NCBI GenBank assembly: GCA_963718665.1
Contig: OY970359.1
Span: forward strand, 2,464,001-2,528,000
Length of the DNA: 64,000 bases
Source: an uncultured Phycisphaerales bacterium
GTDB lineage: Bacteria > Planctomycetota > Phycisphaerae > Sedimentisphaerales > Anaerobacaceae
Direction: 5' to 3'
Part shown: piece after piece, positions 304 through 4,781 of the stretch
Position numbering within the stretch: the stretch's first letter is position 1
Layout: every line of letters begins with the position of its first letter
Program-made: the position numbers and the translations under genes
Notes under the pieces: generated by a model
Databases searched by the model: none
What the model was told of the DNA's origin: nothing
What the model saw: only the letters and a program-made list of their open reading frames with translations

Positions 304-847
304 TACTGTGATTTTAGAACAAATCACGCCTTTAGAAAAGGATTTATCGTCGCTGTTGGCTGTAGTATGATGGACAAAACTTGGAATGAGGTATTTCAAA
401 CCCGACCTTTGATATATCAAGTTTCATCCGTGACATATCATTGTTCAGCTGAGGCAATCAGCCACAAAAAGGGCTTCTACAGCGTCAAAAATGCTGTTCG
501 CCGCAAAAATGCACAAAAGGGGCACAAGAAGGGATTAGGAAAGCTTATGTTGGACTAGTTCACGGTTATCAGACACAGATTCACGCAGATTTACCTGATA
601 TTTCCCATATTAAACGCTTGGCTACGCAACCAAGCCTTCCAGTTCCATAATAATATCAAAATCTTCCTCGAATGACAATAATCCAAGCTGGTTTTTTAGA
701 TTTTGTCTCCAAATCCGCATCTTATTCAAAACGTTACTTTTATTTGGGAAACCAGATTAACATTTCTTAACGGATAATGTTATTTATGTGCCGGACCTGA
801 CGATTTTCTGTGACAACTGGCCGCACTAATTGTCAATAAACCTGTGA

Positions 848-1969
848 TTATGATGGGTATTGCGATCCTTGCTTGGCTAATTCACAACTTACGTTGTTAT
901 GCATGCTCTTCGTTTCGGGCTTCAATAGTTTCCTATTCTTCTTGTTCCTATCAGTTTTGTCAAAATAGTCGTCAATCTCATAATAGTACTTGGCAACGAG
1001 CTTCGCCTTGATTGTGATCATTTCACAAAATTCTGAAGCCCAATCTCCACTGAATTTAAAATATTTCAGGTACACATTAACAGGGCAGTAACTCACTAAC
1101 GGGTATTTTCTTGCTGATTCCGAACCGTAAGCTCTCTCTTGAATGTAGGCGCGAAGTTTGTGGTTTCTCTGTTCGTCAATACCTCTGTGTACGTCTCCAA
1201 TCGCAAATTGAGTGCCGAGCTCCATTGCTCTGTGACAAGGATAAAGAATGCCTTGCCAATCGCAAGCGAGCCCCTCGGCTGTAATGCCGCACATTTGGGG
1301 ACAACTGACCTTCTTTAACATCTCATAAAGTTGCCTCGCACAAAGCAAGATACCCTCGCCACGTAGCATTCCCTGTACCAACTTTTCGTATTCCTTCTCA
1401 AAGAGATCAACATCTTTGCGAGTATACCATCCGTAGTTCTGAATCACATTGATGTAAACTCCGTTCTGAAATCCAACATCCCATAGATATCGGAGATTAT
1501 CGTACAGACTAGGAATAATTCCAGCCTGCATCGCAATTGTAACTCTCCCTAACGAGGCCAAACGCGGCAACCATCTACTTATACGGTCAAATCCCCCCCG
1601 CATGGTATCGTGGCGTTTTTTCCGACCATCCAAGCTCAAGAGGACAGAAATTGGCTCACTTTCAAGGAGCGCCATGGTTTTTTTGCCGATTAGAGTTCCA
1701 TTTGTGACAACGCCAATACTTGTATCTGGAAGTTTATGGCGAAGAGCCTCAACTATATGTTCAAACGCATCTTTGCATAGGAGCGGTTCTCCTCCGAAAA
1801 TCTCGACATGATGCGGTCTGCATTTCACGCAGTATTCAACAAAATTATCAATTACCTCTCGGCTAGCTCTTGCCTTGGGCTGCTTATGATATTTTGTGCC
1901 CTGAAAACAATATTTGCATTCTAGGTTGCAACTCGGTGTCAACAGAATATATATGGTCTTGCTATCCAT
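848..1969 (-). CDS. Radical SAM enzyme with Twitch/degenerate SPASM domain, probable peptide maturase
   Basis: CNLECKYC (CxxxCxxC), FGGEPLL, VTNGT, SLDG; C-terminal CG...DWQGILYPCH...GDV; lies directly downstream of a Cys-rich small ORF. Confidence 0.9.
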   Translation of the reverse strand: MDSKTIYILLTPSCNLECKYCFQGTKYHKQPKARASREVIDNFVEYCVKCRPHHVEIFGGEPLLCKDAFEHIVEALRHKLPDTSIGVVTNGTLIGKKTMALLESEPISVLLSLDGRKKRHDTMRGGFDRISRWLPRLASLGRVTIAMQAGIIPSLYDNLRYLWDVGFQNGVYINVIQNYGWYTRKDVDLFEKEYEKLVQGMLRGEGILLCARQLYEMLKKVSCPQMCGITAEGLACDWQGILYPCHRAMELGTQFAIGDVHRGIDEQRNHKLRAYIQERAYGSESARKYPLVSYCPVNVYLKYFKFSGDWASEFCEMITIKAKLVAKYYYEIDDYFDKTDRNKKNRKLLKPETKSMHNNVSCELAKQGSQYPS

Positions 1970-2172
1970 TTCAACACAGTCTTTCCTTTGCGTGTCGTCG
2001 GCTCAACCTCTACAGCAACCAGTGATAAACTGAAGGTGGGTTCGAGTCACAAAGACACAAAACTCGCTTTGCGGGTAACTCGCGCCACAAAAACCAGACG
2101 TCACTTGGCAAGCATCTGGCGCAGTTCTCACTCGCTTTCTTCATCAGTTTGTTAAAAGCCGGTCCTACAGAT

Positions 2173-2535
2173 TTAGCCTTGGTTGCTCTGAAGGCACGTG
2201 AACAAACAAGCGGTTCCAATCTGACAACCGCCCGTACTACCGGTTGACTCACAACCCGATGGGGGACATCCTTCAGTCTGAAGAGCCGTGAACAAACAAG
2301 CGGTTCCAGGTTGACAACCGCCCGTACTACCGGTTGACTCACAACCCGATGGGGCACATCCTTTAGAAAGATCTTCGCAAGGTTTTACTTTAATTCGTGC
2401 GAGTATGGTTCTGCTCAATTCAATGAAATGGGATCGTTCTTCCGGTGTGGCGTATTGGTAGGCCATCCTCAATTGAGCCCACAGTGGAATTTCTTTGCCC
2501 TCTGCGTCACTCTGTCTTTTCTGATTTTTAGCCAT
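2173..2535 (-). CDS. Putative RiPP precursor peptide with duplicated Cys-rich core
   Basis: 120 aa with a strong RBS (GAAAGGAG, 6-7 nt before ATG). A 58-aa leader-like region is followed by two 30-aa repeats, GC[A/P]PSGCESTGSTGGCQ[P/I]GTACLFT[A/C]LQ; 10 Cys in total. Confidence 0.8.
   Translation of the reverse strand: MAKNQKRQSDAEGKEIPLWAQLRMAYQYATPEERSHFIELSRTILARIKVKPCEDLSKGCAPSGCESTGSTGGCQPGTACLFTALQTEGCPPSGCESTGSTGGCQIGTACLFTCLQSNQG
2187..2363. repeat. 90-bp tandem direct repeat (2 copies) inside the precursor gene
   Basis: cgtgaacaaacaagcggttcca starts at 2197 and 2287; tgacaaccgcccgtactaccggttgactcacaacccgatgggg recurs with a period of 90. Confidence 0.97.
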
Positions 2536-2800
2536 TGCTCTACTCCTTTCGACATAATAGATAGGAACTTAGATTTCATGACAATGCCCACAAGTCAAAT
2601 GCCGTCGTCCCAGTGGTATTAAGAACACCGCACGCTACACGCTCAACTATTAATTTCCCAACCGGGATTTCCCATTTAAATCTGCTCAGCTACGCCTCTT
2701 AGTCTCATTTCCAATAGAACACAGATAAGTAATACTGCGCCTGTTTTGGAACACATAGCCCACCCATGAGGTTTTCCCTCGCTCAATTCAAATATCTCCT

Positions 2801-3843
2801 TGCTTTGTAGAAACCTTTAATTAAAAGTTCTTTATGAAAAGTAAATAGAGAAGCATCAGGTTGTAGGTCAGAACTCTCATGACGCACTCGGTACTGCGAG
2901 ATTCATTCGTTCGGCTACGAAGGGCGTAGCCAAGACGACGTTTCATGCGAGACATAACACTCTCAACTTGCCATCGCTGACCAAACTTACGTTTCGGGAA
3001 GTTATTCTTCATTTGATTTCGGTAATGGCCTGTAAGCTCGCCTTTTTTACCTCGTCGGTTGTTGATAGCGATAATCGTCGAGCGGATGCCGAGATACTGA
3101 CGACAGAATTTATGGTTGGCTTCTGCGTCATATCCTGCATCACCCAAAAGCCGGTCTATAGGCAGATTAGTTACCGCCTGGGAAACTGCCGGCATAAGGT
3201 AGGAACAATCATTGCTGGGACCAGTGCTGACCAAGCCGGCAGCAATCAGATGGCTGGCATTGTGGCAGACAACCGTAAGTTTTGTCCATCGGCGATATTG
3301 CTGGGTATGTTTGCCTTGACGCATTAGAAAATGTCGGCTGACAAACCGGCTTTCCAGCCCCGTCGAATCAATGGATGCCTCGGGGCGTTCCTCGATTAAG
3401 CCATCGCGGCTGGCAATACTGAAAATGGCGGCTAACAGCTTGTCCCAAGCCCTTTTTTTAGCAGACGTTGCTGTGCTTTTTGAAGGGTAGTGTAGTGAGG
3501 AATTTTTGACAACCCAATCGCAGCTCTCAAGTCCGTGAAGTCCGCCAGCAACTGTACAATCCCACGATAGTCGGTTTGAAAAAACTGTCGCAGAGTCAAA
3601 ATGGCGAACAACTGTGCCTGTGTAAAATCGTGGCGTGAGCGATTGGCTGAATATGGCGAGAGTGCCGTTGTGGCTGTCTGAAGTGCCTGCTTTGCCAGCA
3701 TAACAGGTGATTTGGTCATAACTCCGTGTTTGGCCATCGTGGAATCCTTTCCAACGCGGTTTATGGCTGAAACCTAAGTTATTGTTATTATTAACACTTA
3801 TCGCCATGACTAAACCTTATGCTTCAATCTTTTCTACAGAGCA
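2801..3843 (-). mobile_element. Complete IS5-family insertion sequence
   Basis: Terminal inverted repeats tgctttgtagaaa (2801-2813) and tttctacagagca (3831-3843) match 12/13. A 9-bp target duplication, atatctcct, lies at 2792-2800 and 3844-3852. Confidence 0.92.
2821..3737 (-). CDS. IS5-family DDE transposase split across two frames, joined by a -1 frameshift at an A7 run (3453-3459)
   Basis: The N-terminal frame (3432-3737) reads FTQAQLFAILTLRQFFQTDYRG...IPHYTTLQK. The catalytic frame has ASIDSTG, LGDAGYD and RWQVESVMSRMKR. The junction is CTA AAA AAA GGG. Confidence 0.85.
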
Positions 3844-3937
3844 ATATCTCCTGTCATATCTGAACATATTTTTCTCCCAAGCAAGGCACAATTAAATATA
3901 TCATCCTCCACAGGTGTGGGGCCATGTTGCTTTTGTC

Positions 3938-3965
3938 AGCTTATGCAAGCCACTGAAGTTGTCAA
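3938..3965 (-). promoter_or_regulatory. Possible sigma70 promoter facing the precursor/rSAM pair
   Basis: Minus strand TTGACA-16 nt-TAAGCT. Confidence 0.35.
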
Positions 3966-4133
3966 GTAAATTTTGCCACTTTTTGGGATTTATTTTTATT
4001 AACCGTCAACAATTGGGAGCGGGGGACGCCTTTAATTGTGGGGTTTAAGCTGCGGAGGGTTTCTGCGCGATTAACGACCTTGACAGTGAATCCTGTTCCA
4101 ATTCTTTTGTGATGCTCATTTTACGAACGATTT

Positions 4134-4781
4134 TCAGCGGTCTCCGCGATCCCCGCGGTTAATGATTTCTTCTGCTCTTTTGCGCCACTGCTGGGGCCCT
4201 TTTTGCAGAAAATACTCGAACGACTCATCATCCGCCAGTTTCCCCAATATGGCTTTGCGTTCCGATGCGTCTGCTATCTTTTCGATTATGAACCCTCGAA
4301 TTGCCTCAAGCGAAGCCAGAAATTCCCCGTGCTTTTCTGTAAATATATTTTCCAGTTTCTTTCGCAGGTGTCCCGCGTAAGATGGGCAATTTCCATCGGT
4401 TCCTATCGCAATCTGTAAATCCCCTCGCTGCACCACGGCAGGTACATAAAAATCACAAAGCTCAGGCGAATCGACCACGTTGCACAATATCTCCAATTGC
4501 TGGCAATCCTTGTAAATCTGCCTGTTTAACGCCTCATCATTCGTTGCCGCGATGACCAGCGTCGCCCTTCCGATGTAATCCTTTGAATATTTGCTCTCTA
4601 TCAGCTCTGCTGTAGTCCCTGAGCATACTTTGCGAAGCATCTCATCGAGACGCGGGGCCACCACGACTAAGCGTGCGCCGCTGCACAGAATTGTCTCTGC
4701 CTTTCTTGTGGCCACGCTGCCGCCGCCGATGATAACGACTCGCCTGCCGTTCAAATCCAGGAATATCGGATATTTCGCCAT
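4134..4781 (-). CDS. sirC: Precorrin-2 dehydrogenase/sirohydrochlorin ferrochelatase (CysG N-terminal, SirC/Met8-like)
   Basis: YPIFLDL, IGGGSVATRK, CNVVDSPELCDFYVPA, IAIGTDG. Confidence 0.9.
   Translation of the reverse strand: MAKYPIFLDLNGRRVVIIGGGSVATRKAETILCSGARLVVVAPRLDEMLRKVCSGTTAELIESKYSKDYIGRATLVIAATNDEALNRQIYKDCQQLEILCNVVDSPELCDFYVPAVVQRGDLQIAIGTDGNCPSYAGHLRKKLENIFTEKHGEFLASLEAIRGFIIEKIADASERKAILGKLADDESFEYFLQKGPQQWRKRAEEIINRGDRGDR

Follow-up and report, generated by a model that had tools for sequence, protein, structure and literature searches.

The window (the whole 64,000-nucleotide stretch of DNA analysed) carries a gene for a small cysteine-rich peptide followed, in the same orientation, by the gene for a radical SAM enzyme (Table 1). 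Both open reading frames are separated by 203 bp in the ORF list, consistent with the co-oriented pair about 200 bp apart described in the initial annotation. The strong ribosome-binding site given there for the 120-residue ORF is also present, as AGGAG 7–8 nt ahead of the ATG; that of the enzyme gene is weaker and more distant. The unit had also been called AT-rich, and here the two genes stand but the base composition is only modestly biased, with a GC content of 44% for the unit (enzyme gene 43.5%, precursor gene 49.3%) against 49.2% for the genome. Contigs assembled from public DNA runs span most of the unit and have zero listed differences in both genes (one study, possibly the source sample), and the public-run search listed no RNA datasets carrying it. 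A 22-nt inverted repeat with a 73% match is found at 585–606/2664–2685.

Table 1. Features of the two-gene unit and its surroundings (positions are those of the window).
Feature	Position	Strand	Remarks
Precursor peptide gene	2173..2535	-	120 aa, 10 Cys; homologs known
Conserved leader motif	2437..2490	-	Residues 16–33; alignment, leave-one-out profile
Core copy 1	2277..2366	-	Cys60, 65, 74, 80; Ala in place of the fifth Cys
Core copy 2	2187..2276	-	Cys90, 95, 104, 110, 114; resembles the single core of homologs
Radical SAM maturase gene	848..1969	-	373 aa; no N-terminal RRE; degenerate SPASM domain
SAM-cluster motif	1907..1930	-	C14-x3-C18-x2-C21
Auxiliary-cluster region	1025..1342	-	C210, C227, C245, C295, C315; AuxII C-x2-C-x5-C absent
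Insert relative to congeners	304..4133 (approximate)	.	Flanking genes adjacent in 4/6 relatives
IS5-family insertion sequence	2801..3848	-	266 bp upstream of precursor; context, outside the system
Multi-copy palindromic repeat	595..690	.	Downstream of enzyme; terminator-like hairpin 616–635

The precursor has zero matches to Pfam and NCBIfam models. Its last 60 residues are two 30-residue cores, which form a 90-nt tandem duplication that is 91% identical; the 29 codons compared contain four amino acid substitutions and a single synonymous difference. Both cores have the spacing C-x4-C-x8-C-x5-C reported earlier for them; copy 2 adds C114 where copy 1 has Ala84, and an additional cysteine, C53, lies inside the presumed leader. 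Because this spacing has three more chance matches in the genome (six frames), it is weak evidence by itself and outside support is needed. The core was modelled with a pLDDT below 50, giving no confident model, and the cores are predicted to be unstructured.

The enzyme matches PF04055 (53.5 bits, cut-off 29.5), has no match to PF13186, and reaches none of the NCBIfam cut-offs. Its top-scoring NCBIfam model is that of PapB (NF047865; 125.1 bits, cut-off 340), which is also the best model in five of five other family members scanned (115–150 bits). Scores against the models for SCIFF (TIGR03974), the CXXX maturase (TIGR04115) and CrpC (TIGR04463) were 80.7, 76.3 and 48 bits, with cut-offs of 425, 350 and 525. 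The best models (PapB, SCIFF) are those of thioether maturases, and the HMM comparison proposed in the initial annotation leaves the enzyme without a fitting curated family.

Searching with the enzyme sequence by itself gave 74 proteins, among them one from the window's own strain group. There were 63 homologs at 39–66% identity, with E values from 1e-158 to 1e-63, and the next best match falls to 3e-15. When a profile of 56 homologs was run over 1.84 billion representatives, eight members scored 270–550 bits, and below these were fragments and distant proteins at about 200 bits or less. By these searches the window enzyme belongs to a discrete clade with 63 homologs. Among the source names are Deltaproteobacteria, Alphaproteobacteria and Ignavibacteriaceae, and one precursor is labelled Planctomycetes. 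A search of the ESM Atlas with the enzyme gave generic radical-SAM clusters only. A search of viral contigs gave no close family member (the best segments of 35 loci have 23–35% identity), and there was none among the matches listed for phage records (best 10 of 55, 23–30% identity) or for plasmids (best 10 of 133, 25–28% identity); plasmids were also searched for CXXX cores, without a match.

A quick tree was made from 69 rows that were picked from our own search matches and hold no true TIGR04115 members. In it, the 20 rows from the family cluster together (support 99), and their sister (support 98) is a group of 11 RRE-less proteins (P0087, P0090, P0092, P0096, P0099, P0101, P0103, P0104, P0114, P0123 and P0130). 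Four members of this sister clade are about 600 aa long and have a C-terminal extension. The family is a clade separate from SCIFF, and the tree does not place it firmly as the sister of SCIFF/PapB (support 80, on a branch of 0.003). A TIGR04115 relative scoring 171 bits (L082) lies outside the family in the same tree, and none of the 401 genomes carries a TIGR04115 member over the cut-off.

Pattern scans located 39 loci, two in species-representative genomes and 37 in metagenomes, comprising 24 family members (36–65% identity over long stretches), three C-terminal fragments and 12 distant proteins. For 19 family loci the sequence reaches 500 bp or more upstream of the enzyme gene, and in every one of them a small ORF in the same orientation immediately precedes that gene. 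Four others have less than 100 bp upstream, and no precursor was seen in the 403 bp upstream of the enzyme in L003. A leader profile recognised 17 of the 19 upstream ORFs at 36–52 bits; L019 scores 11 bits, and the L014 precursor was picked out only by visual inspection. In 45 control loci, whose radical SAM enzymes are distant ones, no score exceeded 11.5 bits. Most of the loci scored had gone into building the profile, so it was rerun in leave-one-out form, and 16 of 17 rows still gave at least 20 bits (L020, 9.9). As four locus pairs are near copies, the independent cases of co-occurrence number about 15. The two-gene order is shared in unrelated contexts of 35–74% GC. Homologous enzymes do, then, consistently neighbour related peptides, as the initial annotation had asked; its call of a radical-SAM peptide-modification pair is borne out, and because conserved homologous peptides adjoin homologous enzymes, the pairing is beyond chance. 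The peptide and radical SAM genes are a conserved two-gene unit in unrelated bacteria. One homolog (L008, 1530–2600) is without a start codon and is interrupted by an in-frame stop, and L029, L030 and L033 hold only the C-terminal end of the enzyme.

Alignment of the precursors gives a leader motif, P-x-W-x3-R-x5-A-x3-E, in which P17, W19, R23, A29 and E33 are invariant. The leader is predicted to be a helix-turn-helix (residues 18–25 and 31–47), and was modelled with a pLDDT of 87–89 over residues 21–40. Leader identity correlates weakly with enzyme identity (rho 0.35, 132/5000 permutations; n = 17, kin non-independent). An ESM Atlas search with a precursor gave one match at 0.75, and two homologous precursors have a precomputed match to PF27846.

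The cores are hypervariable, with 1 to 21 cysteines, and cysteine is the sole residue common to all of them; aligned precursors diverge too much to serve for a pattern scan. Across 22 precursors (189 Cys), 111 of 167 intervals between cysteines are C-x3-C, as against one of nine in the window's own peptide. Long perfect C-x3-C repeats occur in the cores of L007, L009 and L016, and short ones in L008 and L012. Cores of the window type are also found in L001, P0076, P0077 and P0224. Intermediate cores (L002, L005 and L020) keep the four-residue register with one cysteine replaced, and P0224 was counted among these intermediates too. Because such cores tie it to the C-x3-C register, the window core is a degenerate CXXX repeat of recent duplication; the doubling was not found in any other precursor examined. 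The initial annotation had set this spacing apart from the CxxxC-repeat type, a distinction that does not survive the interval counts, the intermediate cores and the weak scores of family precursors against the CXXX-repeat peptide models. Among 19 family precursors, all at 10–26 bits, the best scores were 16.2 for TIGR04114 (cut-off 20) and 26.3 for TIGR04117 (cut-off 50); the window peptide has no match to either. Cysteine at every fourth residue is thus found across the family, and in degenerate form in the window peptide, and the family is defined by its leader and enzyme architecture, not by core spacing.

Residues around the core cysteines are biased. The residue after Cys is T, L, Q, E, K, M, I, V or R, and so carries a gamma C–H, in 87% of cases, compared with 48% across the cores overall. 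The third residue after Cys is mostly S, T or G, and the position at +4 is Asp after only 6 of 189 cysteines and never Glu. This composition suits acceptors of the CteB type, not the C-x3-D of PapB or cyclophanes, although a bias of this kind does not show which residue is the acceptor. The precursors of L014 (186–584) and L019 (5454–5960) have a very long, Lys/Ala-rich, histone-H1-like N-terminus and a degenerate leader; they have one and four cysteines, respectively, and the adjoining enzymes look intact.

The predicted structure of the enzyme (pLDDT 91.7) was compared with solved structures. CteB is the top match by sequence profile (E 5e-32, the next being 4e-20), with an identity of about 22%, and is also best by Foldseek. 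In VIA-align, residues 1–334 of the model superimpose on CteB 91–450 (Z 30.7, rmsd 3.2 Å, 317 aligned); anSME (Z 28.4) and ChlB (27.8) are only 2–3 units behind. The match begins at CteB residue 91, so the RRE is absent from the window enzyme, which has 13 residues ahead of the SAM motif. This stretch is at most 28 residues in 55 of 56 family rows, and 91–104 residues in SCIFF enzymes. A search for PqqD (stand-alone RRE) in the window's own genome (94.6% complete) gave no match. As for an RRE acting in trans, none was found in this genome, and two other host genomes have one each, on other contigs.

In CteB, the ligands of AC1 are C344, C362 and C413, and those of AC2 are C400, C403, C409 and C432 (PMC10177961, in excerpt). 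The window residues C227, C245 and C295 align with the three AC1 ligands, and C315 is the equivalent of C432. Over the enzyme alignment C210, C227, C245 and C295 are invariant (56/56) and C315 is present in 54/56, while the AC2 motif C-x2-C-x5-C occurs in 0/56. The window enzyme consequently fails the canonical seven-cysteine SPASM motif (AuxI plus AuxII), although the AuxI cysteines are kept. Lacking both RRE and AuxII motif, it fits the description of a minimal maturase given at the outset. The sister clade keeps a C-x2-C remnant of AuxII, which suggests that the motif may have been lost stepwise. The cysteine pattern predicts a single, Twitch-like auxiliary cluster, yet inside a full-length SPASM-like domain. 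In P0079 and P0080, the most divergent pair of members, an acidic residue (Asp/Glu) takes the place of C210, and the sister clade has a neighbouring Asp.

The enzyme is found in one of 24 genomes of the genus and one of 401 of the phylum, in both cases the window's own. The gene at 4134–4781 and the gene starting at 303, which flank the insert, are 40–70 bp apart in four of six congeners; a fifth has an unrelated 999-aa gene at that site (L095, 988–3987) and the sixth is uninformative. The two-gene unit accordingly lies in an insertion, and these neighbours bound a hotspot for insertions. The transposase of the nearby IS5-family element is encoded in two overlapping frames (3432–3737 and within 2821–3807). 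Since the element has six further near-identical copies in the genome (seven in all), and many insertion flanks in public contigs, it was recently active. Related copies of the palindromic repeat downstream of the enzyme number six or more in the genome, and public contigs show many further flanks for it.

Each independent locus has different flanking genes. When 45 of about 100 neighbouring ORFs were scanned against Pfam, no protease, transporter or further tailoring enzyme recurred, and there were no conserved metal-resistance neighbours. Downstream of the enzyme, ABC transporters occur in just two loci, L006 and L022; compared with each other they match at 23% over 145 residues, so they were not taken as a conserved, dedicated exporter. 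In L010 (89–3334) and its near copy L011, the unit lies downstream of a co-directional integron integrase (TIGR02249, 417 bits, cut-off 265), and an attC-like hairpin comes after it (z -5.15, 0/200 shuffles). The unit is accordingly classed as a putative integron cassette at these two loci. Folding of the window flanks gave z values of -0.29 and -1.92, with no integron features seen, and for this reason an integron origin of the window's copy is not claimed. An attC candidate upstream in L009 did not fold (z 0.12), and the remaining candidates at other loci were weak. The custom attC scanner was non-discriminating, giving 14 matches in 88 kb of shuffled DNA and missing the L010 site.

Among known systems, CteB/CteA and Tte1186 (TIGR03974; PDB 5WGG, 5WHY) are nearest in both structure and sequence, sharing the radical SAM plus SPASM fold and the AuxI ligands. 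CteB/CteA systems have the same layout of precursor gene and maturase gene as the window, and the SCIFF core has a cysteine at every fourth residue with Thr, Gln or Ser between. Unlike CteB, the window family has no RRE and no AuxII C-x2-C-x5-C, and has in addition the invariant C210. It also differs from SCIFF in its longer precursor, helical leader and hypervariable cores, and in being patchy across phyla, whereas SCIFF is clostridial. The CXXX-repeat system (TIGR04114/TIGR04117 peptides, TIGR04115 maturase) shares with the family C-x3-C cores with small flanking residues, and its maturase model (359 positions) is similar in length to the window enzyme. That system has partners (TIGR04116/TIGR04119), whereas the window family has no partner genes and a leader of its own. 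PapB/freyrasin (NF047865) resembles the window pair in the multi-site cysteine cross-linking of a repeat core that is proposed for it. PapB has an RRE and two auxiliary clusters (PMC10177961, in excerpt), and its substrate motif C-x3-D is essentially missing from the window family. CrpC of Methanococcus voltae (TIGR04463) is a radical SAM enzyme that installs ranthionines on a long Cys-repeat substrate, CrpA, and has an RRE, three clusters, and a different repeat and leader from those of the window family (PMC13692751, in excerpt). SuiB, ChlB and anSME are precedents for binding substrate without using an RRE, the alignments to ChlB and anSME starting at the first residue of each. Their structural scores are below that of CteB. 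ChlB makes cyclophanes, SuiB makes Lys-Trp links and anSME makes formylglycine. Both clusters of SuiB and anSME are fully ligated, unlike the window enzyme with its loss of AuxII (PMC8326336, in excerpt). The unit is therefore not a new class, as radical SAM enzymes next to Cys-repeat peptides are already catalogued. It is real, conserved and mobile, and lies outside every curated family; its working would be ranthipeptide-like. The literature covered, in part and mostly non-subscription papers (including PMC8172795, PMC10352776 and PMC9062424), has no description of the leader or of a CXXX maturase lacking RRE and AuxII, and supplements of older surveys may list such sequences.

The enzyme is probably a thioether maturase with a single auxiliary cluster and no RRE, which would carry out S–C chemistry and read the helical leader directly. 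Cysteine sulfurs of the core would be cross-linked to nearby side-chain carbons as ranthipeptide-like thioethers. Cleavage of SAM would give the 5′-deoxyadenosyl radical, which would abstract H from the acceptor residue, while the one auxiliary cluster (C227, C245 and C295) would hold the donor cysteine and accept the electron, with 2 Da lost per bridge. The acceptors would most likely be gamma carbons of the Thr/Gln/Glu/Leu type, and the leader would dock on the catalytic barrel or on the conserved C-terminal helices. In CteB and Tte1186, Cys is linked to the gamma carbon of Thr and the open AC1 iron grips the substrate sulfur (PMC10177961 and PMC8326336, in excerpt); AC1 of Tte1186 binds substrate Cys even with AC2 deleted (PMC10177961, in excerpt). 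Reduced activity of CrpC persists without AuxII or without the RRE (PMC13692751, in excerpt), and the helical leader of SuiB binds the barrel/bridging region, not the RRE (PMC8326336, in excerpt). As there is no conserved protease or exporter, the product may remain an intracellular, full-length stapled peptide, or use host machinery.

The main objection to thioethers is that C210 might supply AuxI with its fourth ligand and so shut the open iron site on which thioether enzymes rely. Also counting against them are the L014 precursor, with its single Cys beside an intact-looking enzyme, the near absence of C-x3-D/E, the weak placement beside SCIFF/PapB in the tree, the identity of only about 22% to CteB, and the small Z margin of CteB over anSME and ChlB, whose chemistry is different. 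Fully ligated clusters accompany C–C chemistry in SuiB and PqqE (PMC8326336, in excerpt). Another radical chemistry, in which C210 would complete an electron-only four-cysteine cluster, is nonetheless unlikely; the enzyme would then form C–C or C–O links, epimerise, or oxidise Cys or Ser, and the peptide cysteines would form disulfides or bind metal. There are indeed exactly four invariant C-terminal cysteines (210, 227, 245 and 295), of which C210 gives way to an acidic residue in P0079/P0080, with an Asp adjoining in the sister clade, as a metal ligand might; the RRE-less anSME and ChlB score Z 27.7–28.4, and Ser, Thr and Gly make up 40% of the non-Cys core residues. The top sequence and structure matches are nevertheless thioether enzymes, the aromatic residues that cyclophanes need are scarce and unconserved in the cores, and SkfB makes thioethers despite a spare cysteine nearby (PMC8326336, in excerpt). 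Thioethers to alpha carbons, as in sactipeptides, are distinctly improbable: SkfB lies far below CteB (Z 19.6 vs 30.7; E 6e-11 vs 5e-32), sactisynthase models are outside the best NCBIfam matches, and the nested-hairpin layout of Cys and acceptor was not found in cores of 1–21 Cys. These outweigh the small residues at -1 and +3 of the core cysteines (S/G/A, 54–55%) and the example of SkfB and ThnB, which are sactisynthases with one auxiliary cluster (PMC8172795, in excerpt).

The regular C-x3-C arrays of widely varying length, the missing AuxII motif with C315 mostly retained, and the lack of a conserved protease or exporter would also suit a metallothionein-like scavenger of metal or Fe-S, which the enzyme would load, edit or borrow ligands from, the CXXXC array replacing the lost AuxII cysteines. 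This is very improbable; it is purely inferential, the leader/core layout and the kinship to peptide maturases suit a RiPP-type substrate, and the 45 flanking ORFs are without conserved metal-resistance neighbours. That the two genes are chance neighbours, or the decayed remnant of a larger cluster, is barely credible, even with an insertion sequence adjoining, the unit in an insertion site, the in-frame stop of L008 and three loci reduced to C-terminal fragments. The same gene order in 19/19 informative loci, in unrelated contexts of differing GC content, in effect refutes chance, and the window copy retains every key cysteine.

The thioether reading can be extended, more tentatively, to something possible although doubtful: a self-sufficient stapler of about 345 residues that would have shed the RRE and second auxiliary cluster, would read a 20-residue helical leader directly, and would processively bridge cores of nearly any length or sequence (1–21 Cys), with the invariant Cys210 serving either as an iron ligand that can be switched or as a relay for the radical, and with spread between phyla as a two-gene cassette, including in integrons. 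If so, it would be a new architecture for cross-linking cysteines and a compact, promiscuous tool for macrocyclisation. The roles of auxiliary clusters and RREs in thioether radical SAM enzymes are a current subject of work with deletion mutants. The enzyme family resembles a natural double deletion (RRE and AuxII motif) with an extra invariant cysteine, and as the compact unit can be expressed whole and has many natural leader and core variants, these roles become directly testable. The unit may also yield the first chemistry for CXXX-repeat peptides.

Two further kinds of precursor depart from the others in the family. That of L002 (5614–5967) has a hydrophobic, signal-peptide-like N-terminus ahead of the leader motif, which the others are without. 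Those of L015 (2334–2540) and P0233 have a short, family-atypical core of three cysteines that ends in two Trp residues, for which a different chemistry is possible.
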